Below are positions 222-23,974 of a stretch of 64,000 nt of DNA, piece after piece (positions within the stretch are counted from its first letter, which is position 1; every line of letters starts with the position of its first letter). A model generated the notes under the pieces. The model was given only the letters and a program-made list of their open reading frames with translations, made no database searches and was not told the DNA's origin. Source of the DNA: an uncultured virus (IMG/VR IMGVR_UViG_3300011906_000002). Taxonomy: Duplodnaviria > Heunggongvirae > Uroviricota > Caudoviricetes. The position numbers and the translations under genes were made by a program. The stretch covers positions 124,001 to 188,000 of the IMG/VR virus record IMGVR_UViG_3300011906_000002; one strand, written 5' to 3'.

Positions 222-932
222 ATGAAAGTTAAAGCAGGGGGGGCTTGGCGGTGGTCACACCTTCGAGTGAAATGGGGTGGGTTGTGGAAAACACCTCAGC
301 GGATACTGACGAAGGTCAACGGGGTCTGGCAAGGCATCCAACACCTCCTCTCGGTAATGAATGGACTTACCCGTTGGTGGTTGTCGGAAAGCAAAACCGT
401 TGATCCGATCACCGGAACTTCACTGACCGTTTCATCGGGGGCGAGCTTTGCGGCTGTGTTGGGTCGGATGTCTCTGCGCGTTTATGGGGGTCGGTATGCA
501 TTGGTTCCTAGCGTAAGCCTAAGTGGGAACTGGACCATTAACCTGTGGTATTACCCATTGGGGTATGCGACCTATAGTCATTTGCTAACACATCTAAGTG
601 GTCAGGTCAACTTCGCACTCAAGTTGACCGTTACGGATGGTCGACCTTATCTCCATTACAAAGGTGTTAGTTACGGACTGTCAAGTGCTGGACTGTCTCT
701 GAACCAATGGTCAATGGTTACGGTTACTCATGAAGCAGGGGTCTTGAAGATCTATTTGAATAAGGTTTTGCAAACCACCGCTAATGTCACTGTGTCTCAA
801 GCGGCTGTGAACATGTACGTGGGGCGTGGTCATGAGGAGGAATATTCCAACGGTTATCAACGTGATCTGTTGTTTTATAATCGAGCGTTAAGTCAAGCTG
901 AGATCAACACCGTTTATCAAGAACAGGCGTAA
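222..932 (+). CDS. LamG/concanavalin-A-like domain protein, putative tail-fibre-associated adhesin
   Basis: C-terminal WTINLWYYP, NQWSMVTVTH, LKIYLN, YNRALSQAEI are LamG_3 signatures; Trp/Gly/Lys N-terminus (KAGGAW, KWGGLW, KVNGVW); ATG at 222 preferred. Confidence 0.75.
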   Translation: MKVKAGGAWRWSHLRVKWGGLWKTPQRILTKVNGVWQGIQHLLSVMNGLTRWWLSESKTVDPITGTSLTVSSGASFAAVLGRMSLRVYGGRYALVPSVSLSGNWTINLWYYPLGYATYSHLLTHLSGQVNFALKLTVTDGRPYLHYKGVSYGLSSAGLSLNQWSMVTVTHEAGVLKIYLNKVLQTTANVTVSQAAVNMYVGRGHEEEYSNGYQRDLLFYNRALSQAEINTVYQEQA

Positions 933-971
933 AGGCGGCATACAGGGAGGCTCATGCCTCCCTGTAGGCTT

Positions 972-1301
972 TTATGCCAGCAGTGTCCAACCATGTGTAG
1001 GGCGGCGAGCATAGCACTTTTCGACCATTGCATCTAACCGAGCGTGGGGGATGTTGTGGGCGGTTACACCACCGACGCTACCGTCCGTGAATTCATGAAA
1101 CAGGAAGATAGAGAAACTCTCCCCTTCACGACGCACCTTCCACGAGAACCACCCAAGGTGAGCATAGATCTGCGTGTACTGTTTCTTGATCAAGAACCGG
1201 CTGCGCTTAACTCCACGAAACTCCTCCTCTCGACCAAAAGGTAGGCGCACATACTCTTGGTAGTGTTCCCAACGATCCGCCCGACTGAAGAGTTTCTTCA
1301 T
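972..1301 (-). CDS. Hypothetical protein
   Basis: 109-aa ORF coupled by a 4-nt overlap to the 1298..2521 gene. Confidence 0.7.
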   Translation of the reverse strand: MKKLFSRADRWEHYQEYVRLPFGREEEFRGVKRSRFLIKKQYTQIYAHLGWFSWKVRREGESFSIFLFHEFTDGSVGGVTAHNIPHARLDAMVEKCYARRPTHGWTLLA

Positions 1302-8117: not shown

Positions 8118-8244
8118 GTAAAAAAAGACACGTGCTCGGTATTTCTGTGAAGAAGTGTCAGCACAAACCAATGTAGGGGTTTGCTCAACCAAACCCAAGC
8201 CAACCCCTATGTGCTAAACTTAACCTGAACAAAAGGTGAATCAA

Positions 8245-9207
8245 ATGGAAGTTGGAAAAGTAAGGTTGTATGGCTGTGGCGGTCTCGGGGTCAACTTCGC
8301 GGCTCGTTATCTGAATAGCAAAAGCGGAGATGGCTTCGCTGCGATCGATCCTGCGTTCATCGATACCAGCCGTTCCAATCTCACCCCGGAAATCCCCGAG
8401 GAGAAGGTTTACATCCTCGAGAATACCGACGGCTCCGGTAAAGTGCGTCGTGAGAACCACGCACAGATCTCCAGCTCCATCAAGCACATCCTGCAATCGC
8501 AGCAGCCTGGTGAGTTCAACATCGTCGTGTTCTCGGCCTCCGGTGGCTCGGGTTCGGTGCTGGGTCCGCTCATCGTTTCGGAACTGTTGGTTCGTGGTCT
8601 GCCGGTTGTGGTTCTGGTTGCCGGTTCTTCGGAATCGAACATCACAGCCAACAACACCGTCAACACCCTGAAGTCACTGGCTGCGATCAGTAAGAAGGAA
8701 TCGGCTCCGGTCGTAACCTACTACTTGCACAACGGTGGCGACAACACCCGTTCGGCAGTGGACAAGAAGCTGGCGTTCGCTACCTCCTGCCTGTCGTACC
8801 TGGCGTCTCGCCAGAATGCTGAGCTGGATACCAAGGACGTTAGCCACTGGCTGCGTTACAACCACTCGACCGAAGTGGCTCCACAGCTCTCGCTGCTGGA
8901 CATCTTCATCGACCAGAAGTCGGCCAAGAGCATCACCGATCCGATCTCGGTGGCCAGCCTCTACGCTGATCGTGACCAACCGCACCTGACTGATCCGGTT
9001 CCGGACTACTCGTGCGCCGGTTACTTCCAGCACAAGGTACAGGACATCGAAGAAATCCACTTCGTGATCTCCACCCAACACCTCGGCGCGACTTACGAGA
9101 AGCTCGAGGAAACCCGCAACGACTACAACGCTCGTCGTGACAGCCGCGTACAGACCCGCAAGATCGTGGATCTGGACGAAGCACAAGACGATGGTTTGGT
9201 TCTGTAA
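8245..9207 (+). CDS. phuZ: Phage tubulin PhuZ
   Basis: GCGGLG, DGSGK, SASGGSGSVLG tubulin signature, acidic DDGLVL C-terminal tail. Confidence 0.95.
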   Translation: MEVGKVRLYGCGGLGVNFAARYLNSKSGDGFAAIDPAFIDTSRSNLTPEIPEEKVYILENTDGSGKVRRENHAQISSSIKHILQSQQPGEFNIVVFSASGGSGSVLGPLIVSELLVRGLPVVVLVAGSSESNITANNTVNTLKSLAAISKKESAPVVTYYLHNGGDNTRSAVDKKLAFATSCLSYLASRQNAELDTKDVSHWLRYNHSTEVAPQLSLLDIFIDQKSAKSITDPISVASLYADRDQPHLTDPVPDYSCAGYFQHKVQDIEEIHFVISTQHLGATYEKLEETRNDYNARRDSRVQTRKIVDLDEAQDDGLVL

Positions 9208-10698: not shown

Positions 10699-11310
10699 CT
10701 AATTGATTTTGCCTCGTCTTACAAATTTCAGCAGCTTAGAGCGTACCAGGTCGTAAGGCCGAATGGTGCTACCTATTCTGCCTTTAAGGAGTTCTATGCC
10801 GCCAAAGCGCAGGACCTCAACGATGAACTCAGAACAGATAGAGATCTGACCATCGGTTGAGGAGAAGATGTTCTTACGAAAGATGGCGTTAAAGAGTCCC
10901 AAGTGGTTGTAACGAGTCTGGTCAGGGTTTGCAGCCAGAAACTCCACGCGCTCCTTGATTTGATCGAACGCTGCGTCTGTTACTTTTAACTCGTAAAGCG
11001 AATAAAATGAACCGAACAGATTTGCGCGGTCTTCCACCATGAAACCACCCTTAACGGAACTGATGCCGTTGTTAAGCGCGTAGGTATAGATGGGGTCGTC
11101 GAAACTGTCGGTGAGCATCAAGGATACGTGGTTATACGGATCGCCTGTGATCAGTCGGCTGACTTTGCTAAACTGGGTCTTGGTGTCTGTTAGCAATACG
11201 TAGATTGATTTGGCGTCGCGGTTCTTAGCCGCATTGACCAACTCTATGCCCTCTTCACTGTAGACCAGGCCCAGACCTGGCTCAATGAGGGCAGATAACT
11301 TCGCCGCCAT
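10699..11310 (-). CDS. Permuted papain-like (NlpC/P60, YiiX/YebB-type) amidase
   Basis: PYNHVSL (His) precedes SICSEFIVEVL (Cys); RYNHLGL and IRPYDL motifs. Confidence 0.75.
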   Translation of the reverse strand: MAAKLSALIEPGLGLVYSEEGIELVNAAKNRDAKSIYVLLTDTKTQFSKVSRLITGDPYNHVSLMLTDSFDDPIYTYALNNGISSVKGGFMVEDRANLFGSFYSLYELKVTDAAFDQIKERVEFLAANPDQTRYNHLGLFNAIFRKNIFSSTDGQISICSEFIVEVLRFGGIELLKGRIGSTIRPYDLVRSKLLKFVRRGKIN

Positions 11311-11367
11311 GGAGTGACGCTCCTGTAGTGGGTGAGTAGAAGTGATAAACTTAAAGAAGTAGCCAAC

Positions 11368-11745
11368 ATGAAATCTTACAAGGTTGTAGTACCTTTAGTG
11401 ATCTACCTCATCATAGCAGTAGGGATGCTGGGGATATATAAATGGGTAGGCGATCGCACTACCTACATGATCGCGATGGCATGGACTTTCTATGCAGGCT
11501 TTAGGGCGTTATATCTAACGGTGTTGGGGGGAAAAGCCGCTGAGCAGATGTTGGTTGGAAATTATAATCAACAAAGCTTAGTGTTCATGACCATTGTGGT
11601 GGGTGTCATCCCTTTCCTGTTCCTAGGATGGATGGGTCCTCTGGCGTTCGGGTGCGTAAGCTTTGCATTCGAATACCAATCCTACCTGATTATCCGGAAA
11701 TATACGTGGAGTAAAAACCATGGTAGACATTACCATCAACGCTGA
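11368..11745 (+). CDS. Membrane protein (about 4 TM helices)
   Basis: Four hydrophobic stretches. Confidence 0.7.
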   Translation: MKSYKVVVPLVIYLIIAVGMLGIYKWVGDRTTYMIAMAWTFYAGFRALYLTVLGGKAAEQMLVGNYNQQSLVFMTIVVGVIPFLFLGWMGPLAFGCVSFAFEYQSYLIIRKYTWSKNHGRHYHQR

Positions 11746-12142
11746 CCACTCGTTTGTTAAGTTGAACAACGGCAACACCATCGAGCACGATGAAGAAGGG
11801 ACTGTGTTCATTCGCAACATCTCCCCACAAACTGACGACCCTGCCCGTACCCATACCCACTACGCTAACATCCAGTGCCTGGCTAACGAAGGGGCGCAGA
11901 TGATCGAGCTGATTCGACAGGGTATTGAGACCGGTCATTGGGAAGGGCGTTCACGCCATGCGTTGGTACGTTCCGGTACACCGGGGTGCTACCGTTACTT
12001 CCCTGTCCCTCTGCTCTTTGAGAAGGATGAGACTATTCGCAAGTCCAGCCAAGAAGCCGGACAGCACACCCACCCAGACGGTTGGTACAAGTATCGCCGT
12101 AACTTGGTGTCGCAACTCGTTGGCCTACCTCAGATACCTTGA
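11720..12142 (+). CDS. Hypothetical protein
   Basis: 140-aa ORF, GGAG RBS, followed by a terminator. Confidence 0.8.
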   Translation: MVDITINADHSFVKLNNGNTIEHDEEGTVFIRNISPQTDDPARTHTHYANIQCLANEGAQMIELIRQGIETGHWEGRSRHALVRSGTPGCYRYFPVPLLFEKDETIRKSSQEAGQHTHPDGWYKYRRNLVSQLVGLPQIP

Positions 12143-12158
12143 GGTGGGGCTTTACTTT

Positions 12159-12184
12159 AGGAGGCTTCGGCCTCCTTTTTTTTT
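12159..12184 (+). terminator. Intrinsic terminator
   Basis: AGGAGGC-TTCG-GCCTCCT plus T tract. Confidence 0.9.
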
Positions 12185-12207
12185 CGCTGGGGTTTACACT
12201 ATAATAT

Positions 12208-12651
12208 GCGATTTAGTGTCACTGGTAAAAAATCCGTTGCTTTCACGGTCAATGGATTAACACCGATGTCGGTCTGTTGAGCATTGTCTATGGCAGTGCA
12301 CTGGTTGTCCAGATAGCTGAGTTATGGGTCTCGGTGAAAGAGTAGTCAGATTCGTATTGAGGTGACCCGGATTCTGCCACCGTTCATTTGTTTGTTTGCG
12401 CACGGTGGAGCGAGCAGAATTATTACATTCCGTAGGTCGGGGTAGCGGTTTAACAGTGGACAGGAGCGGTCGGATTGTGCTCTGGCGTGGCAACGACTCG
12501 GGAACGGCACCACGCCGTACAGAGAGTGCCGCTGGTGGGCATCGGAGTTGCTAAAGGGGAAACCTCGGTGCGTCACCAGGATGGTTGCCCTGTCCCTTTC
12601 CACCCTGGGGGTGGGGTGTAGAAGGAGGACTTCGGTCCTCCTTCTATGCCG
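12208..12651 (+). ncRNA. Putative large structured non-coding RNA (about 440 nt)
   Basis: Follows a terminator; TATG at 12205-08; at least 9 helices with + strand G-U pairs; ends in a 12-bp UUCG hairpin plus TATGCCG; no credible ORF. Confidence 0.65.
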
Positions 12652-12773
12652 CCATTCAACCATAGTTCTAAAAACGCATAGGAAGCTCGTGACAAGGTTT
12701 TCGTCTGTTAAACAATACCTACCCGCGTATTTTATAGAGAGCTTGTCTGGCGCATCCTAAGATGTTTCAGACC

Positions 12774-12790
12774 TATATCATCTTAGTGAA
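12774..12790 (+). promoter_or_regulatory. Early promoter variant
   Basis: TTTCAGACC-TATATCATCTTAGTGAA. Confidence 0.6.
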
Positions 12791-12822
12791 GTGGTAGACC
12801 CCTTTAAAGAAAGGATTAAACT

Positions 12823-13344
12823 GTGAAATATGTCATACCCACCCGTGATTGGGTTGAGTTCCTTAAAATGCGTTTGACTGACATCATCAGTGAAGGTCAG
12901 ATCCCGAAAGAAGAACTGCGTTTTAGTGACTCTGTTTGTATCCACGTGGTGCGGCATCTTCTGATCATGCGCCTGCGCGACATGATGTTTTGGTTCCATG
13001 ATGAACTGGAACTGAAGCTGGCTGACCCCACGGATTTGCTGATGACCATGGTAGTGGAAGAAGAAGAAGGTTTGATCGCCAGGATCTTCCCAGCCTTTGT
13101 CAATGTAGTGGGTGAAACACGCAATGTTAACTCAGTACTTGAGACCTGGGGCGACCTTTTGGAAGACGAGGTAATCGATCCACTGGACCGGTGCATCTTG
13201 GACTACCTGACTACCACGCTGTCAATCGAACCGACCTGGGACCATTGTACAGTTAAACAATTGGGCAACAGCTACATTATCACTCGCGGGGAAGACTACC
13301 GTGCATTATTCTGGGACAAGTACCGAAACACCGTCAAGCCCTAG
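12823..13344 (+). CDS. Hypothetical protein
   Basis: 173-aa ORF, AAGGA RBS, first gene of a tightly coupled operon. Confidence 0.8.
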   Translation: MKYVIPTRDWVEFLKMRLTDIISEGQIPKEELRFSDSVCIHVVRHLLIMRLRDMMFWFHDELELKLADPTDLLMTMVVEEEEGLIARIFPAFVNVVGETRNVNSVLETWGDLLEDEVIDPLDRCILDYLTTTLSIEPTWDHCTVKQLGNSYIITRGEDYRALFWDKYRNTVKP

Positions 13345-13801
13345 ACGGGTGGTGGTGGAAACCTCACGGGTGTTGGGGTTCATGGAAACAGCGCTAAACG
13401 ATCACTTCGGTGCAGCAGCTCAGTATCTGAACCTACAGTCGATCCTCTACCAACTGGTGGAGAACCGTATTAGTGGGAATGTGATGGCCTCGTGTGAGGT
13501 GATCAAGAAACTAATTGGTGAATACGGGTTGGATGAAACCTTGTTGGACGAGGTCTTTGACGCAGTGCGCGATCAGATGAACCAAGTCTTTAACCTGTCC
13601 TTCCCTTATGACATCAGCGAGTACGTGTGTAACTTCCGTTTGATTAGCCGAGGTGATACCTTGGTTGAAATCTTGCGTGAGCATGACGAACCGAGTGCAG
13701 TGCATTTGGAAGATCGTGTCCACGAATACTTAGAAGAAGCAGACGAGAACTTCGACTACGTCCCCGAACGTGTACGCCGAGCCTTGGAAGCAATGCGATG
13801 A
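13301..13801 (+). CDS. Hypothetical protein (start uncertain)
   Basis: 166-aa acidic ORF overlapping both neighbours. Confidence 0.75.
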   Translation: MHYSGTSTETPSSPRRVVVETSRVLGFMETALNDHFGAAAQYLNLQSILYQLVENRISGNVMASCEVIKKLIGEYGLDETLLDEVFDAVRDQMNQVFNLSFPYDISEYVCNFRLISRGDTLVEILREHDEPSAVHLEDRVHEYLEEADENFDYVPERVRRALEAMR

Positions 13802-14169
13802 GCCCTGTGGTGGTACTGGCCCTCCCGACCAGTGAACTGCCACAGGCTTCCCCTAAACTACTGACGTACCTTTGTGAGTCGTCAGAAAGCTTGCGTTGGT
13901 TGGCTGTAGAGATACTCGGTAATCGAGGCGATGGTCATCATCAAGAAGACCTGTTTTACGAACGGGTGTTAGGCGATGAAGGGGTGCAGTATACAGAGAC
14001 TGTCACCATGTTGCATCAAGACTACCTCGATTACCTGAACTCAGTTGAACAGGTGTTGTTCCAGTACCTAGGAAAGCACCTTAGTAATTGCTGGTTTAGG
14101 AGTGTCGCACAATCACACGCAGTCCTTGTTGTGGAATGTCATTATGATCCTATTGATCCCCCTGAATGA
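13798..14169 (+). CDS. Hypothetical protein
   Basis: ATGA overlap coupling. Confidence 0.75.
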   Translation: MSPVVVLALPTSELPQASPKLLTYLCESSESLRWLAVEILGNRGDGHHQEDLFYERVLGDEGVQYTETVTMLHQDYLDYLNSVEQVLFQYLGKHLSNCWFRSVAQSHAVLVVECHYDPIDPPE

Positions 14170-16531: not shown

Positions 16532-18703
16532 GTGAATAATTCATTCTTAAAACCCGCCAACCATTACAGCCGTGATCTGGATGTGCTGGGTAACTATCGT
16601 AACGATATGGCCCTGTATTTGTCCAAGCGCACAGGTAAGCCGTTGGAACAATGTCAAGCCTGGGTTCAACAAGTCACCTCCGCCGGTGGTCGTTTGGAAA
16701 TCAAAGACCCCGAAGTCCTGCACCTGGCCCGTAACAAGTCAGGGGATCGGGAACAAAAGGTGTTAACCTACACCGAGTATCTCAATAACATCAAAGACCG
16801 TAAACTGTTGTTCTCCCCAGCGATGACCGTTTACGAGAACCCTAACCGTCGTGAGTCCCTGCTCTCTATCTACGTTACCGGTAACATTGAGGGGCGTGCT
16901 AAGGTGAAAGCCGAAGCCTTTGATGCCCAGATGGCGGGTAACCACGTCGTAGCCGACATTAAAGAGAACGAGCAGTCCACGTACAAGATTGCCAATAACT
17001 CGATCTCAGGCGGCCAAGCGTCAGCGTCTACGATCTTCTACAACAAGTCTGCACACTCCAGCCTGACTTCCACCTGCCGTGTAGCAACCAGTTATGGAAA
17101 CTCGAACAACGAGAAGTTCCTCGCAGGTAACCGACACTACTGGGCACCGGATGTGGTATTGGCGAATATCACCTCGATCATCGGACACGTTGACTACAAC
17201 ATGATCGGCAAAGCTGTCCAGACCTACAACCTACACATCCCAACTGTGGATGAAGTGATGGAGGTGATTCTTTATAGTACCCACCACTACTGGCGCAATA
17301 AGGGAAAGGAAGGAGAGATCCGTAAACTGGTTGAAGGCCTGGAGCCCTTGGAACGTGTAGCCTTTGTGTATGTCGGCGATATGTGGCACTTGGGCAAATA
17401 CAACACAGGGTTCGTTCGTACCTTCTTGCAGGTTCTGTCTAGCAAGACTGCAGGGCAGACCTTGGCGTATGAGGATGCTAAGGTCTACGTTAAAGGGATG
17501 GATAACGACCTTAAAGCGTACGTGAGCTTGATCTGTGCACAAGAGTTGGCAGGCCGTACCCTGAAGAAGCTTCAAGAATCGGCAGACAAAGGAGAAGCGG
17601 AAGCCATTCACGGTATGCGGGTCATGGGTGAGTTTGCCAAGAAGACCATCGAGACACTGGAGCAGTTCGCCTTGTTGATCGAAGCCTTCTGGGTAACCGA
17701 CAACGTTCCGGCCTCTGTAGCTCGTATTCGTAACTCGGTGCGTCACGTTGCGATCACCTCCGACACTGACTCAACGATCTTTACTGTTGAGAATTGGGTG
17801 GAGTGGTACCAAGGTAAGGTGGACTTTAGCGATGAAGCCTTTGCTATCAACTACACAATGGTGTACCTGGCGTCCCAATCGATCATCCACGTCTTGGCTA
17901 AACTCTCAACAATCCTTGGGGTAATTCCTGAGAAGTTGAACGTGTTGGCGATGAAGAACGAGTTCGCCTTCTCAGTGTTTGGTTTGACGTCAATGGCCAA
18001 GCACTACTTTGCCTACAAGGCTGCTCGTGAAGGTAACGTCTTTAAGCACCTGGAGGAAGAAATCAAAGGGGTGTACCTGAAGGACTCCAACTGTCCGCCT
18101 GAGATTATGGCGGTGGTGACTGAGACCATTAAGGAAGTTATGGATACGGTGATTGCGGATAAGCAAATCTCCATGGTCGATCTGTACCGTAAGATCGCAG
18201 CCATCGAGTTTGACATCATTGAGTCGGTGATCAAAGGGCGGTCTCGCTATTTGGCCCGTGCTTCTGTGAAGTCAGCTAACTCCTACACCAACCCCCATCA
18301 GTCCCCGTATCAGCACTACGTGTATTGGCAGGATATCTTTGCACCTGAGTATGGTGATGCCCCTGAAGCCCCTTACGCGGCTATCAAGGTATCGCTTGAC
18401 CTTCCGAACAAGACGGCCATTGCAGAATGGATCGCCAGCATTGAAAACCCGGAAGTGGCAGCTAAGGTTGCAAAGTACTTTGCCAACAAGCCTGGGATGA
18501 CCACCTTACTGCTGCCGAAGGATAACGTGGAACGCCACGGACTCCCGAAAGAAGTGGTTCAAGCGATGAACATCCGCAAGCTTGTGTATTCGACGGTTCG
18601 GCCGTTCTATCTCATCCTTGAAGCCCTTGGCATTTTCTTGGTGAATGGTAACAACACCAAGCTGGTCAGTGACTTCGTGAGGGAATGGGAAACAGCGGCA
18701 TAA
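16532..18703 (+). CDS. Split family-B DNA polymerase, palm/thumb subunit (phiKZ gp50-like)
   Basis: Q..YKIANNS.SG (motif B), SDTDS (motif C), KGVYLK. Confidence 0.85.
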   Translation: MNNSFLKPANHYSRDLDVLGNYRNDMALYLSKRTGKPLEQCQAWVQQVTSAGGRLEIKDPEVLHLARNKSGDREQKVLTYTEYLNNIKDRKLLFSPAMTVYENPNRRESLLSIYVTGNIEGRAKVKAEAFDAQMAGNHVVADIKENEQSTYKIANNSISGGQASASTIFYNKSAHSSLTSTCRVATSYGNSNNEKFLAGNRHYWAPDVVLANITSIIGHVDYNMIGKAVQTYNLHIPTVDEVMEVILYSTHHYWRNKGKEGEIRKLVEGLEPLERVAFVYVGDMWHLGKYNTGFVRTFLQVLSSKTAGQTLAYEDAKVYVKGMDNDLKAYVSLICAQELAGRTLKKLQESADKGEAEAIHGMRVMGEFAKKTIETLEQFALLIEAFWVTDNVPASVARIRNSVRHVAITSDTDSTIFTVENWVEWYQGKVDFSDEAFAINYTMVYLASQSIIHVLAKLSTILGVIPEKLNVLAMKNEFAFSVFGLTSMAKHYFAYKAAREGNVFKHLEEEIKGVYLKDSNCPPEIMAVVTETIKEVMDTVIADKQISMVDLYRKIAAIEFDIIESVIKGRSRYLARASVKSANSYTNPHQSPYQHYVYWQDIFAPEYGDAPEAPYAAIKVSLDLPNKTAIAEWIASIENPEVAAKVAKYFANKPGMTTLLLPKDNVERHGLPKEVVQAMNIRKLVYSTVRPFYLILEALGIFLVNGNNTKLVSDFVREWETAA

Positions 18704-20401: not shown

Positions 20402-20457
20402 TACTCACCTCGAGTGGGTTGTTTGCGCAAACAAACGTTAACGAAGGAAATAAACTC

Positions 20458-22464
20458 ATGAGTGTTAATAAAGACAGCGGTAAGTCCAGCGGTTCTCTGG
20501 CCGACGCCATGCGTCAAGCCGGCCTCGGCGCCCAAGACCAGCAGCAGGCTGCCCCTGCTCTGCAACCTCAATCAACCCCAACACCCGAAACCAACCTGGG
20601 TGGGAGCCCTAACATGAACACCAACCCCAACGCTCGTGTAGGTCAGCCTGGCCGTTCCATCATGAACGTCAACAGCCAGCACCGTGGTCTGGTTTCCCGC
20701 AACATGAGCGGTGAGACCGTCCAGAAGATCCATGACGGCCTCATGGAGCGCGCTAAGCGCGTGATGGATGCCAAGACCCTCGAAGCCTTCCGCTTCCTGG
20801 TTCTGGACAGCAATCAGCTGCAGGTCAACTACAGCTCGATCCTGGTGTGCATGAAAGAAGTCCATCAGGGCCAAACCCACATCGGCGTCTACGATCTGCT
20901 GATCGAAGGTTCCGGTCGTCCGCTACAGCCGAACATCGCCACCATCGATGGCCACACCATCGAAACGATCTTCGCTGCCAGCGACATCTACAACCACAAG
21001 TCCCACTGGGACACCGTGAAGAAGTTCGTAGTGGACACCTTCGGCGTTAACGCCCAGGTACACGACGCCGGCTGCACCGTGATCCCGACTGAGCTGGACA
21101 AGGACATCCCGGTCGAGCGTTTCCAAGACTGGCTGCACAACAGCGTTCAGGCTGTGTGGGCGGTTCTGGATATCAAGTTGGGCGCTGAAGCTCCTGCATT
21201 CACTCTGGCCGAGTTCGGCGAGAAGGACGTCCTGACTGCTCGTTCCGAGTACGGCAGTGTCCACGGCACCAACATTGTTGGCCTGCCGGTGCGTGAAGAC
21301 ATCGAGCTGACTGTTTCGGCCAGCAACAACGCCGAGACTCAGGGTCTGGACATGCGTCCTCCGCGTGAACTGACTCGCGTCACTGGTTACGTCGACATCA
21401 TGTACAACCCGGTGCAGGTGCAACAGCAGCAGCAGTTCGGGATGTTCGGCATGCAGCAACAGCCGATGATGCCGGGCATCATGTATCAGCCGCGTCTGGT
21501 ACTGACCAACGTCGAGTCGATGACTGACGTCGTGAGCATGGAGCTTCAGCTTCTGGCTCTGTCGACTGCTGTTCAGCTCGGCCGTAACGGCAACTGGTGG
21601 AATGCGTTCCGTCGTCCGCTGAAGACCTACAGCGAAGGTGCCAATGCTCGCAAGGGCATCAACCTGCGTGACGTAGGTGCGATTGGTTACGAGATCAAGG
21701 ACCCGGCCAACCCTGGCCAGCCTGGCAACAAGATCGACACCAGCGCTGCCAACTTCGGCGATCAGCAGTTTGCACAGATGATGGGCATGTTCTTCAGCCA
21801 GCAGCTGCTGTACACGCTGGACATCGAAGAAGCGGGCGAACTGAGCTGGTTGCAGCAGACGTTCATCGCTGCGGCGAACAAGAACGAAGACGCGCGTAAG
21901 AGCATCCTGCTGGCGGCCAACCGCCTGACGCTGGGTCGCTTCGAGAAGCACTTCCCGTTCGATGCGCCGGTCTGCTTCGACGACCAAGACCGTATCCACC
22001 TCGGGTACTACACCAACAGCGACGGTCACCTGCGTGACCTGCGTGAGCTGGACTACCTCGCCATCCTGAACCTGGCTGGCAAGGACGATCCGACTCTGTT
22101 GGAGAAGTGGGAGCGTACTCACCTCGATCGCAGCATCCCGCTGTCCGTGCGTCTGCATGAGCGTAAGACCATCATCGACCGCCTGCTGTCGGGCTCCGTT
22201 GTGGTCAAGGGCTTCGCACGTCGCGTCACTTTCTCCGAGCAGTTCATCAAGGCTCTGAGCGACTCGATCGAAGAAGCCGGCCTGTCCGTCCGTCCGGGCA
22301 ACATGGTCGACAGCTTCAACCAGGGCGCCACTCGTGGCGGCTACTCCTTCCAGGGTCAGCTGGTCAATCCTGGTCTGGGTAACTGGATGTCGAGCGGTGC
22401 GATCCAGCCGAACTACGGGAACCGTTTCGGTAACCAGCAGTTCAACGGCGTGTGGGGTCGCTAA
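20458..22464 (+). CDS. chmA: Chimallin, major nuclear shell protein
   Basis: About 668 aa, strongly biased codon usage, immediately upstream of the gp55-like RNAP subunit; GLPVREDI, RIHLGYY, LRDLRELDYLA.LN motifs; AAGGA RBS at ATG 20458. Confidence 0.9.
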   Translation: MSVNKDSGKSSGSLADAMRQAGLGAQDQQQAAPALQPQSTPTPETNLGGSPNMNTNPNARVGQPGRSIMNVNSQHRGLVSRNMSGETVQKIHDGLMERAKRVMDAKTLEAFRFLVLDSNQLQVNYSSILVCMKEVHQGQTHIGVYDLLIEGSGRPLQPNIATIDGHTIETIFAASDIYNHKSHWDTVKKFVVDTFGVNAQVHDAGCTVIPTELDKDIPVERFQDWLHNSVQAVWAVLDIKLGAEAPAFTLAEFGEKDVLTARSEYGSVHGTNIVGLPVREDIELTVSASNNAETQGLDMRPPRELTRVTGYVDIMYNPVQVQQQQQFGMFGMQQQPMMPGIMYQPRLVLTNVESMTDVVSMELQLLALSTAVQLGRNGNWWNAFRRPLKTYSEGANARKGINLRDVGAIGYEIKDPANPGQPGNKIDTSAANFGDQQFAQMMGMFFSQQLLYTLDIEEAGELSWLQQTFIAAANKNEDARKSILLAANRLTLGRFEKHFPFDAPVCFDDQDRIHLGYYTNSDGHLRDLRELDYLAILNLAGKDDPTLLEKWERTHLDRSIPLSVRLHERKTIIDRLLSGSVVVKGFARRVTFSEQFIKALSDSIEEAGLSVRPGNMVDSFNQGATRGGYSFQGQLVNPGLGNWMSSGAIQPNYGNRFGNQQFNGVWGR

Positions 22465-22543: not shown

Positions 22544-23974
22544 ATGGGTGTCTGTGCAGAGATCGTTAACCACGATCAGCTCTTCGATTCACTGACCAGC
22601 GTACCGCTCATCATTAACGATTATCAAATCGACAGTAAAGAGGACCGAGACGCTCTTCACAACCTCGCGATTACCAAGTACACAGGGGAATCCCTTGACA
22701 TCGTACCGTCGTGCGATTGTGGATACCTCAAGTACCAGTACAACGTCGGCGTACGTTGTCCGATATGCAACCACTTCTGTTTGCCGTCTACCGAAAGGCC
22801 TCTCGAGGCACTTTTGTGGATAGCAGCACCAGAAGGGGTAGATCGTTTGATCAACCCGTGGGTGTATGTGATCCTCAAGTCGGAGATGACCGTCAAGAGC
22901 GTAAGCTTGTTAGACTGGCTTATCAATCCTGGGTACCGACCCAATAACAAGAAGATGGAGTTCTTCACCCAAGCGCTAACGGCTCAAGGCTACAAGCGTG
23001 GGCTGAATTCCTTCTACCGTAACTTCGACAGCATCATGCAACTGATGTGCTCGGAGGAAGGACCGTTGTATGACAATAAGAAGAAGCGTAAGGTGGAATA
23101 CCTGCGTACCTTCATTGCGTTGTATCGCGATCTGATCTTCAGCCATAAGGTGCCGATCCCGTCGAAAGCGGCCTTTATCATCGAGAAGGCTGCGACTGGT
23201 CTGTATGGTGATCTCACTATGCGGCCCGCCATTGATGCGATCTACACCATCAGTGGTATCGTGCACAGCCAAACCAAGCTGAGCCAAGAGGAAATCGAGA
23301 AGCGTACCGTTACCGCGGTCACCATGCTGTCTGAGTACTATGCGCCGTTCATCGGTTCACAGTTGGGTAGTAAGACTGGTTGGTGGCGTAAGCATGTGTT
23401 TGGATCACGTGACCACTTCAGCTTCCGGGCTGTTATCACGTCCCGTTCTGAGCAGCATCATCACGAGGAACTCGAGCTGCCTTGGTCGTTGTCGATCATG
23501 GTCTTTAAGACCCACTTGACGGCGAAACTGTTGCACCGAGGGATGTCGCCTAAGCAGATCAACAAGCTGCTGTTCGAACATACCCTGCGTTATCACCCCC
23601 TGATCGATGAGATCTTCAAGGAGATGATTGCGGAATCGCCCCGTAAGGGTATTCCAGTAATCTTCCAACGTAACCCTACGTTGACCCGCCTATCGGCCCA
23701 ACGCCTGTATGTCACCCGTATCAAGAGTGAAGACACACGGATTAACACTGTGAGTCTCTCGGTACTGGTACTGCCGGGCATGAACGCTGACTATGACGGT
23801 GATGCCTTGAACGGGATCATTATCCTCGACCACCAGATGTTGGAGGCGTTGGATGAGTTGGCCCCAAGGAACGGTGTGTACGACACCCGAAAACCCCGCA
23901 GCATCTCTAGCCACATTGCAATCCCTGCACCTGTGGTGACCACGATCTCGAACTACATACACCGAGGCCGTTAA
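22544..23974 (+). CDS. Non-virion RNA polymerase beta' N-terminal subunit (phiKZ gp55-like)
   Basis: CDCG...CPIC zinc finger, FSFRAVIT, QRNPTL, catalytic NADYDGD. Confidence 0.92.
   Translation: MGVCAEIVNHDQLFDSLTSVPLIINDYQIDSKEDRDALHNLAITKYTGESLDIVPSCDCGYLKYQYNVGVRCPICNHFCLPSTERPLEALLWIAAPEGVDRLINPWVYVILKSEMTVKSVSLLDWLINPGYRPNNKKMEFFTQALTAQGYKRGLNSFYRNFDSIMQLMCSEEGPLYDNKKKRKVEYLRTFIALYRDLIFSHKVPIPSKAAFIIEKAATGLYGDLTMRPAIDAIYTISGIVHSQTKLSQEEIEKRTVTAVTMLSEYYAPFIGSQLGSKTGWWRKHVFGSRDHFSFRAVITSRSEQHHHEELELPWSLSIMVFKTHLTAKLLHRGMSPKQINKLLFEHTLRYHPLIDEIFKEMIAESPRKGIPVIFQRNPTLTRLSAQRLYVTRIKSEDTRINTVSLSVLVLPGMNADYDGDALNGIIILDHQMLEALDELAPRNGVYDTRKPRSISSHIAIPAPVVTTISNYIHRGR

Follow-up and report, generated by a model that had tools for sequence, protein, structure and literature searches.

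A putative new family of large structured RNAs in one branch of the nucleus-forming jumbo phages

The DNA considered here, referred to as the window, is a stretch of 64,000 nucleotides (nt) comprising bases 124001-188000 of the 223,076-base record of an uncultured virus with direct terminal repeats (IMG/VR IMGVR_UViG_3300011906_000002). PHROGs searches locate within it the genes for the nuclear-shell protein chimallin (window 20419-22464), the tubulin PhuZ (8236-9207), a beta-type subunit of the non-virion RNA polymerase (nvRNAP; 22544-23974), and a DNA polymerase (16532-18703). Since all four are encoded here, the genome is that of a chimallivirus, that is, a nucleus-forming jumbo phage, as had been guessed in an earlier reading of the letters without database searches (the sequence-only reading). 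Set against 290 phage records, the DNA polymerase reaches no more than 44% identity, with Xanthomonas phage RTH11 as its nearest match, and the genome is far removed from cultured phages. Our subject is the locus between an open reading frame (ORF) of 140 amino acids (aa) at 11720-12142 and one of 173 aa at 12823-13344, the + strand of which probably encodes a non-coding RNA of approximately 440 nt (12208-12650). We propose that this RNA belongs to a new family of structured RNAs found in one branch of the nucleus-forming jumbo phages, its fold and bounds being solidly supported by comparison with relatives.

Neither flanking ORF has a PHROG or Pfam family, and a search with either protein returns one set of four viral contigs, in which the gene order is identical. 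The 140-aa protein has no match among cultured phages by tblastn and gave no Atlas lead; AlphaFold returned one model with a pLDDT of 77.9 and four at 40-46, and a Foldseek comparison of the model with the PDB yielded nothing at E ≤ 0.001 and TM ≤ 0.2. The RNA region itself has no blastn match in 50,697 phage records. No tRNA or tmRNA gene is found in the window or across the whole 223-kb genome, where the count of tRNA genes is 0.

On its upstream side the locus is closed off by the intrinsic terminator of the 140-aa gene (12159-12184, + strand), a stem at 12159-12176 with a run of eight T residues. This terminator, already picked out by the sequence-only reading, is kept in all relatives, and an equivalent hairpin and T run precede the RNA in sister lineages. 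Next comes a candidate promoter and start, CTATAATATG (12199-12208, + strand), ending in the TATG of 12205-12208. Relatives carry CTATAGTATG at this site; CTATA(A/G)TATGCGAT is invariant in six sequences, and the spacer upstream of it varies. The TATG had been taken for the core of the phiKZ late promoter. It is indeed conserved, and the rule is in print, but according to the published account (PMC4666361) TATG is necessary without being sufficient, its G being +1; were the site phiKZ-late-like, transcription could plausibly begin at G12208. A sigma-70 promoter at TATAAT (12200-12205) was rejected, as it lacks a -35 partner and no sigma-70-type site is present on the + strand here.

At the other end, a UUCG hairpin of 13 base pairs (bp; 12618-12630 with 12635-12647) runs into TATGCCGCC (12645-12653), the whole forming a phiKZ-type terminator (12618-12653, + strand). 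The hairpin had been read as 12 bp (12619-12646) with TATGCCG following as a separate addition; the stem is 13 bp (12618-12647), and the TATGCCG, which is present, is part of a genome-wide terminator motif. Three pairs of the stem are changed on both sides among relatives. Hairpin 12618-12647 is followed by C-TATGCCGC in the window and by CTTTATGCCGC in the relatives. In phiKZ, terminators mapped by ONT-cappable-seq consist of a stem-loop and then YTTATKYYGT (PMC10914365), and a similar motif is reported for 201phi2-1. The stretch 12618-12653 fits this motif (a GC-rich stem-loop, then TTAT(G/T)YYGT), with two of the ten motif positions differing in the window. The genome contains 69 TATGCC[GC] sites, about 45 of which, judged by eye, lie directly 3′ of a GC-rich hairpin. 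Examples in the window are 942(-), 5529(+), 14579(+), 16465(+), 18702(-), 34083(-), 47228(+), and the pair 58352(-)/58381(+). The loops at the hairpin-TATGCC sites are 4-5 nt, the arrangement is often palindromic and two-way (CGGCATA-hairpin-TATGCCG), and several sites lie 20-30 nt upstream of early-type promoters or ribosome-binding sites (RBS). Such sites contain TATG and could double as late starts; the TATG of 12645-12653 could likewise be a late start for the next gene.

Approximately 110 nt beyond the terminator, the early-type motif TTTCAGAYCTATATYAY is found at 12765-12790. This promoter copy, TTTCAGACCTATATCATCTTAGTGAAG (12765-12790, + strand), belongs to the gene at 12823-13344; it lies outside the RNA and sets the right-hand limit of the unit. 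Seven strict copies of TTTCA[GA]A..TATAT exist, with about 13 if a looser core is allowed (by eye), all on the + strand and most of them, again by eye, upstream of an RBS and start codon. The motif takes the form of an A-rich tract and then TTTCAGAYCTATATTACYT..GTGAATAG (e.g., window 12765, 20385, 34499, 47245, and 49688), and is also seen upstream of the 140-aa gene in loci L011 and L017. Because the gene at 12823 possesses its own early-type promoter behind the terminator, the RNA is a separate unit of approximately 440 nt. The standalone unit that the sequence-only reading had drawn here is thereby upheld by a terminator on either side and a separate promoter for the next gene; the ends, placed from the candidate promoter and terminator, would fall at about 12208 and 12650.

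The + strand of the locus folds at -189 kcal/mol, against a mean of -162.6 (standard deviation 5.6) for dinucleotide shuffles (z -4.75); none of 100 shuffles equalled it in this comparison, which the sequence-only reading had proposed. The - strand folds at -153.5 kcal/mol with a z of -4.66, and since the two values are so similar z is uninformative on strand. The absolute fold energy and conserved G-U pairs agree in pointing to the + strand. Many such pairs, on which the sequence-only reading had also relied, are conserved in the six-sequence alignment described below, and because they would become A-C mismatches on the opposite strand they fix the orientation.

These data bear on the prospect that there is no RNA gene at all, and that the locus is a small protein gene, a DNA-level site (an origin, packaging site or binding array) or a neutral spacer that folds. 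Such a view could appeal to the minus strand, which also beats its shuffles, and to a 105-aa minus-strand ORF at 12346-12663. That ORF differs between the six related sequences, which have no ORF of at least 40 aa in common, and single-base gaps at alignment columns 249, 257, 277, 344, and 399 break the frames; the absence of a credible ORF had been noted from the letters alone. Set beside the 25 pairs that change on both sides with pairing kept, including G-U pairs possible only on the + strand, and beside conservation across lineages whose chimallins are only 40-49% identical, this leaves the non-RNA explanations a next to negligible probability.

The window clade is represented by an alignment of six distinct sequences: the window, the four viral contigs, and one metagenome contig, with a mean identity of 89% in the RNA region. 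The structure model was built partly from the helices of the sequence-only reading and partly from the alignment. It comprises 110 pairs in 15 helices, and 96.5% of cells are paired. Twenty-five pairs are changed on both sides. Sliding the 3′ partners by 1-3 columns leaves only 2-4 such pairs and lowers pairing to 39-48%, and not one of 500 column shuffles matched the observed values. Both-side changes occur in P3, P4, and P6, in each of the four 3′-domain helices, and in the terminal hairpin. The main helices proposed earlier proved to be present where they had been placed and kept in all six sequences, several of them with both-side changes.

The RNA opens with a hairpin, H1 (AAUCCGUUG/CAAUGGAUU; 12231-12258, + strand), which is specific to the window clade, forms nine of nine pairs in all six sequences (AATCCGTTG/CAATGGATT in DNA letters), and shows one one-sided change. 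It is followed by a junction domain (12261-12364, + strand), in which P2 (12261-12276 with 12347-12364) closes P3 (12281-12299), P4 (12301-12312), and P5 (12317-12334), with a UGAAAG joiner directly after P5. P3 (GCATTGTC/GGCAGTGC in DNA letters) and P4 each have two pairs changed on both sides. Each of the six sequences forms the P2 duplex, at -8.5 to -15.9 kcal/mol, with letters that differ between them; the P2b columns were misaligned by MAFFT.

P5 is a 5-bp hairpin, CTGAG/CTCGG (12317-12321/12330-12334), the loop of which contains GGGT (12326-12329). A plain helix had been drawn between GGGTC (12326-12330) and GACCC (12364-12368). The complementarity exists, but because the GGGT lies inside the P5 loop its pairing with ACCC would create a pseudoknot, and the plain helix is better read in that way. 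The possible pseudoknot (12326-12368, + strand) would join the loop GGGU (12326-12329) to the ACCC (12365-12368) of the conserved GUGACCCGG. ACCCG is invariant in all lineages, and the proposed pairing, whose letters do not vary, shows no covariation. An alternative candidate partner of ACCCG is the CGGGG of the P7 loop.

P6 (12371-12420, + strand) consists of AUUCUGC/GCAGAAU closing CACCGU/ACGGUG around an 18-nt U-rich loop with (UUUG)3; all 13 of its pairs form (ATTCTGC-CACCGT/ACGGTG-GCAGAAT in DNA letters) and two are changed on both sides. The joiner UAUUACAUU and the hairpin P7, CCG-UAGGUCGGGGUAG-CGG (12421-12450, + strand), then make up the invariant 3′ end of the conserved domain, which terminates in a nearly unchanged 27-nt segment.

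Beyond P7 lies a Y-shaped three-way junction (12458-12595, + strand), closed by GGACAGG/CCUGUCC and bearing two long arms; its helices (10-13) hold 16 pairs changed on both sides. The closing helix GGACAGG/CCTGTCC has 7/7 pairs, four of them changed on both sides; GCGTGG/CCACGC has 6/6, again with four; and the CTGGTG../..CACCAG helix holds in the six related sequences. The arms end in conserved loops of 19 nt and 13 nt. The tip of one arm, which had been called GAAA-capped, is the conserved 13-nt loop UGCUAAAGGGGAA and not a tetraloop. A small hairpin, T1 (CCACCC/GGGUGG; 12600-12614, + strand), with 88.9% of cells paired and one one-sided change, separates the Y-shaped domain from the terminator.

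The sequence-only reading had also suggested a longer form of the RNA, the pairings of which are complementary in the window itself. They fail in the relatives, where TATGCG/CGCATA retains 3-4 of six pairs and TTAG/CTAA 1-2 of four, and GTTTAACAG/CTGTTAAAC reaches only seven of nine pairs in four of five relatives.

A scan with Rfam 15 (4227 models, including riboswitches, T-box, RNase P, tmRNA, ribozymes, ROOL, and GOLLD) gave no match at the gathering threshold in the 64-kb window. At E ≤ 10, the region 11900-13000 gave only eight matches of 13-19 bits to hairpin-like microRNA and small RNA (sRNA) models, which is noise level, and the 206-nt core (12255-12460) gave none. The P7 region bears some likeness to a T-box sequence and to the c-di-GMP-II aptamer in its 3′ part, as ACCCGG does to the P4 strand of RNase P, but these likenesses were discarded: no Rfam match was found at E ≤ 10, and the topologies differ. 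Full-text literature searches turned up no description of such an RNA, none of them having been aimed specifically at a large structured RNA beside this gene in chimalliviruses. The view that the RNA matches no known family is therefore borne out, and with the covariation and the RNA's own bounds so is the core of the sequence-only reading, a standalone large structured phage RNA outside known families.

Only the 5′ part of the RNA (approximately 12260-12450) is common to several lineages. Members were first gathered by a pattern, CCGTAGGNCGGGGTAGCGG, covering the 19 nt of strongest conservation (P7), and the covariance model R1 (162 positions, 28 pairs) was built from lineage 2 only. The pattern scan gave 12 loci among viral contigs (four close relatives, five of lineage 2, two of lineage 3, and one chance-like), 36 among metagenome contigs (15 family members and 21 GC-rich chance matches), and 14 in prokaryote genomes, all of them chance-like and scoring 16.9-21.6 bits with R1. 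Two loci found with a second pattern, CAACGACTCGGGAACGG (L022 and L024), were dismissed as coding sequence. With R1, window 12316-12450 is matched across the full model and scores 40.4 bits (E about 8e-10), compared with 36.9-44 bits for the three relatives of clade 1 that were tested and 29.5-30.6 bits for lineage 3. Among 36 control loci possessing only the motif, 30 score 16.9-21.8 bits and six give no match. One further locus, L048, scores 23.1 bits, barely more than the controls, and we treat it as a weak candidate for a fourth lineage.

The order shared by the lineages is P2, hairpins up to P5 (with GGG in its loop), a UGAAA-type joiner, the 3′ strand of P2, (GUG)ACCCG(G), P6, UAUURCAUU, and P7. 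P6 is closed by 7-10 bp, its loop being pyrimidine-rich in lineages 1 and 2, and P7 reads CCG-UAGGNCGGGGUAG-CGG. The window possesses the features proposed for the family, namely P5, ACCCG, the P6 stem, UAUURCAUU, and the P7 loop UAG(G/A)NCGGGGUAG, and its R1 score lies above the motif-only controls. Lineage 2 alone contributes 63 pairs, 91.4% paired, of which 18 are changed on both sides (5-9 when slid; 0/500 shuffles), so that the P2-P5 junction layout covaries in a sister lineage as well. In the alignment of 19 members, 21 of 28 pairs are changed on both sides (3-10 when slid) with 93.4% of cells paired, and the closing stem of P6 covaries across lineages. Cross-lineage MAFFT alignments were wrong outside the motif and were excluded from the counts.

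Synteny is independent support for the homology of the 5′ domain. Upstream of the RNA in both lineage 1 and lineage 2 stand an orthologous 140-aa gene (47% identity) and its terminator; the distance to the chimallin gene is 8-14 kb in each of three lineages; and the RNA is single-copy in all four genomes searched. The encoded chimallin shows 49% identity in lineage 2 and 40% in lineage 3. The lineage-3 chimallin match, G003:C1:30436-32358(-), contains one in-frame TAA and the ORF listing gives 631 aa; its N-terminal part may be split or mis-started. An alignment search with chimallin retrieved 12 viral contigs, 11 of which carry the RNA. Nine were already known through the pattern, and R1 finds the RNA in two of the other three, at 82 and 69 bits. 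These two members carry a variant P7 loop (UAGAU...), UAGAUCGGGGUAG, from which it follows that the pattern is not absolutely fixed. The contig without an R1 match is 65% complete, and its chimallin gene lies 4.4 kb from the contig end. Among cultured phages, blastn of the lineage-2 RNA against the 50,697 phage records gave no match, and a 45-nt motif gave only 17-nt chance matches in Streptomyces phages.

By comparison, the 3′ Y-shaped domain is specific to the clade of the window. Model R2 (149 positions, 36 pairs) matches the window genome at 176 bits and has no match in three sister genomes and, apart from two weak ones in RTH11 at 13.5 and 11.8 bits (E 0.3 and 0.87), none in five cultured phages. 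The RNA thus has two modules, a widely conserved 5′ domain of approximately 190-240 nt and a clade-specific 3′ Y-shaped domain, a division that was out of reach of the sequence-only reading. This extra domain stands at the very locus where sister lineages have a tRNA array (G000 versus G001, G002, G004, and G006).

What follows P7 differs from lineage to lineage. In the window clade it is the Y-shaped domain, the small hairpin, and the terminator. In lineage 2a, AAGGAG and a conserved 50-aa hydrophobic ORF occur within approximately 10-25 nt, and tRNA genes come next; the ORF (MMRAVFVFVPAL...), each with its own AAGGAG, is found in L011 (oriented 942-1094), L012, L013, L019, L042, and L046, and synonymous differences between contigs suggest that it is translated. 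In lineages 2b and 2c a tRNA-like gene begins approximately 17 nt after P7 and is followed by more tRNAs, and throughout lineage 2 tRNAs lie within 0.1-0.5 kb of the RNA. Lineage 3 has a GAAA-capped hairpin with a U run and then a P-loop ORF. In L048 the P7-like hairpin is followed directly by a putative, well-formed type I hammerhead (929-1031(-)) with the core letters CUGANGA...GAAA and the stems intact, scoring below gathering (RF00163, 26.2 bits against 34; RF03152, 35.9 bits against 56.3); tRNAs lie on both sides and an HNH gene upstream. The window has no hammerhead match at E ≤ 10 (11900-13000).

Two observations on these tRNA-rich loci are recorded in their own right. Approximately 750 nt without an obvious ORF follow the L048 hammerhead, up to the next tRNA. 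Furthermore, tRNA-like genes with inserts of approximately 50-90 nt occur at L017 760-886(-) and at equivalent places in L011, L013, L019, L112, and L113; the Rfam tRNA model spans 127 nt of such a gene at 35.9 bits, ARAGORN in default mode misses it, and these are possibly intron-bearing tRNAs in jumbo phages.

The variety of these contexts suggests a module rather than a switch, and it is here that a cis-acting leader of the riboswitch, T-box or attenuator type has to be weighed. On that account the 5′ domain would be the sensor and the following element the platform, which in the window clade would be the 3′ domain with the terminator. A conserved domain with a variable 3′ part is riboswitch-like; in lineage 3 a hairpin and U run come directly after P7 and precede an ORF; and in lineage 2a AAGGAG and a start codon lie within approximately 10-25 nt. 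Moreover, phiKZ and 201phi2-1 are reported to produce many short RNAs derived from 5′ untranslated regions (5′UTRs) by premature termination. The downstream genes, however, have no common theme, being a membrane peptide, tRNAs, a P-loop ORF, or nothing; the next gene in the window has its own promoter behind the terminator; and where a tRNA-like gene or hammerhead begins immediately 3′ of P7, a platform would have no space. Inspection by eye, as opposed to a systematic test, revealed no alternative pairing of P7 with the terminators, and there is no Rfam riboswitch or T-box match at E ≤ 10. We consider a leader function unlikely.

We favor instead, at about even chances, a folded scaffold RNA that has its own transcription unit and acts in trans. 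The absence of a theme among the downstream sequences is one reason for supposing action in trans, and the terminator and separate promoter that cut the window RNA off from the next gene are another. The RNA would be transcribed as its own unit from the conserved CTATA(A/G)TATG start and ended by the phiKZ-type terminator. A discrete RNA could be released in every context, each of which offers a route to a 3′ end after the conserved or added domain (the terminator, the 5′ end of a tRNA or, possibly, a hammerhead). In sister lineages the 5′ domain would be the first product of a tRNA-operon transcript, freed by 5′ processing of the tRNA, and in the weak fourth candidate, L048, it might be freed by the hammerhead. 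The invariant core, composed of ACCCG, the joiner UAUURCAUU, and the P7 loop of 13 nt, may be the docking site of a conserved partner, which could be a protein or else an RNA belonging to the translation or tRNA apparatus; contact through these unpaired segments is suggested by their being nearly fixed while chimallin drifts to 40-49% identity. In lineage 2 the 5′ domain stands at the head of a tRNA operon, for which reason our leading guess is a function connected with tRNAs or translation. What the data show directly is the fold, how far it is conserved, where the unit is bounded, and what surrounds it; transcription, action in trans, the partner, and the tRNA link are matters that we infer.

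The same invariant nucleotides might be thought to belong to a ribozyme, whether self-cleaving or a catalyst of RNA or tRNA processing. The core is of pseudoknot type with invariant unpaired nucleotides, and the related loci hold tRNAs, intron-like tRNA inserts, and a hammerhead. Yet no ribozyme family matches window 11900-13000 at E ≤ 10, the hammerhead of L048 is a separate element downstream of P7, the topology appears unlike the cores of RNase P, group I or HDV-like ribozymes, and the window genome has no tRNA to process, all of which makes catalysis highly improbable.

An RNA-only particle of the ROOL/GOLLD kind, in which the loops mediate homo-oligomers that perhaps enclose or present tRNAs or ribosomal parts, is very unlikely. 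What speaks for it is that the RNA is phage-encoded, large, and ornate with no protein partner apparent, that it adjoins tRNA arrays in sister lineages, and that several long loops (13, 13, and 19 nt), although invariant, pair with nothing else in the molecule. Against this, it does not match the Rfam models of ROOL or GOLLD, it is shorter, at approximately 440 nt with a conserved part of approximately 200 nt, and no self-complementary loop pair was found.

Several observations weigh against the interpretation of the locus as a trans-acting RNA of a new family. The window clade amounts to two sub-clades, and hence many of its both-side changes go back to one event each. Members found with the pattern necessarily share CCGTAGGNCGGGGTAGCGG, so that its invariance is partly built in, and the 19-member alignment, having been fitted to R1, leans towards the model by construction. 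A sequence-only nhmmer profile of lineage 2 without the 19-nt pattern misses the other lineages (best E 2.7, elsewhere); it does not see the window RNA, and the case for homology across lineages accordingly depends on the structure-aware model together with synteny and short motifs held in common. In five cultured chimalliviruses (phiKZ, 201phi2-1, RTH11, Xoo-sp14, and RP31) R1 has no real match, a 12-bit match in Xoo-sp14 (E 0.2) having been discarded as noise inside a membrane-protein coding sequence. With regard to transcription, TATA[AG]TATG occurs once in the genome and CTATA[AG]TA three times; TATG alone is insufficient in phiKZ, and we infer promoter use at 12205-12208 only from conservation. 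No partner candidate emerged, and the neighboring 140-aa protein has neither a Pfam or PHROG family nor a fold match. The window genome has no tRNA genes, and the tRNA link is consequently neither general nor obligatory; one sub-lineage also has an RBS and small ORF within approximately 10 nt downstream, as a cis leader would.

To these must be added that, among the sequencing runs holding the stretch, none is recorded as RNA. Four wastewater runs from one study, labeled RNA-Seq cDNA and rated as probably DNA, contain short contigs identical to the window: 12275-12440 (X16), 12461-12596 (X20, with adapter letters at both ends), 12728-12886 (X18), and 12739-12895 (X19). No identical contig was found in them for the flanks 11000-12000 and 13000-14000; the runs were chosen with this stretch and cannot rank its parts. 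DNA runs labeled soil, marine plankton, groundwater, and marine metagenome (four studies) hold 68-86% of the sampled words.

A more specific version of the trans-acting reading, which we regard as distinctly unlikely, places the molecule in a new class of large structured RNAs. Present once and always in the core gene block of one nucleus-forming branch, it would cooperate with the phage's tRNA and translation module, perhaps by forming an RNA-only assembly or by serving as an RNA chaperone or adaptor. If this is true, such an RNA could handle tRNAs or other RNAs leaving the phage nucleus, a step for which we know of no RNA component in nucleus-forming phages. The protein machinery of these phages (the chimallin shell, the PhuZ spindle, and two RNA polymerases) has been intensively studied; to our knowledge almost nothing has been established about their structured RNAs. 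The 27-nt segment has hardly changed across lineages in which identity of the shell protein has fallen to 40-49%, and the place of the RNA near core replication and transcription genes is fixed; such constraint implies a function important to the phages that carry it. In practical terms, the approximately 200-nt conserved part is tractable for probing and cryogenic electron microscopy, and the covariance model together with the transcription signals (the early-type promoter and the hairpin-TATGCCG terminator) can be used for annotating this uncultured clade.

Among known phage RNAs, the pRNA of phi29 is a structured RNA of approximately 120-170 nt built on a three-way junction with functional loops, and is found in small phages with terminal-protein genomes. 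The 3′ domain of the window RNA is also a three-way junction with two conserved loops, which is an analogy only; unlike pRNA, it shows no complementary loop pair, and no homology would be expected. The stable RNAs C and D of phage T4 are small RNAs with no assigned function that are transcribed together with a tRNA cluster and set free when the tRNAs are processed. The arrangement in lineage 2 is similar, although the T4 RNAs are much smaller and come from an unrelated phage.

Closer in host are the short RNAs of phiKZ and 201phi2-1 detected by ONT-cappable-seq, which were reportedly filtered to less than 250 nt and are mostly 5′UTR fragments. Also reported are one 201phi2-1 sRNA just upstream of a tRNA and one sRNA positionally conserved among giant phages. 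Both sets are chimallivirus non-coding RNAs bounded by phage promoters and a terminator motif of hairpin plus TTAT. The window RNA differs from them in being larger and in forming its own terminator-to-terminator unit, and R1 finds no counterpart in either genome.

Closest in kind are ROOL and GOLLD, likewise phage-encoded RNAs of hundreds of nucleotides having multi-helix folds with pseudoknots, whose function is also unknown. They are described (10.1101/2024.12.08.627333) as phage- or prophage-encoded, often beside tRNA islands, and as forming cages, GOLLD being half conserved and half variable. The RNA of the window family similarly heads a tRNA array in sister lineages, and the L048 candidate is flanked by tRNAs; as in GOLLD, one half of the window RNA is conserved and the other clade-specific, the conserved half being the 5′ one. 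It is unlike them in matching no Rfam model, both families being modeled in Rfam, and in being smaller, at approximately 440 nt with a conserved part of approximately 200 nt. So far it is found only in chimallin-encoding jumbo phages, and the window genome has no tRNA. As a third, smaller, and independent family with a ROOL/GOLLD-like genomic habit, it would offer a new handle on the question of what ROOL and GOLLD do.

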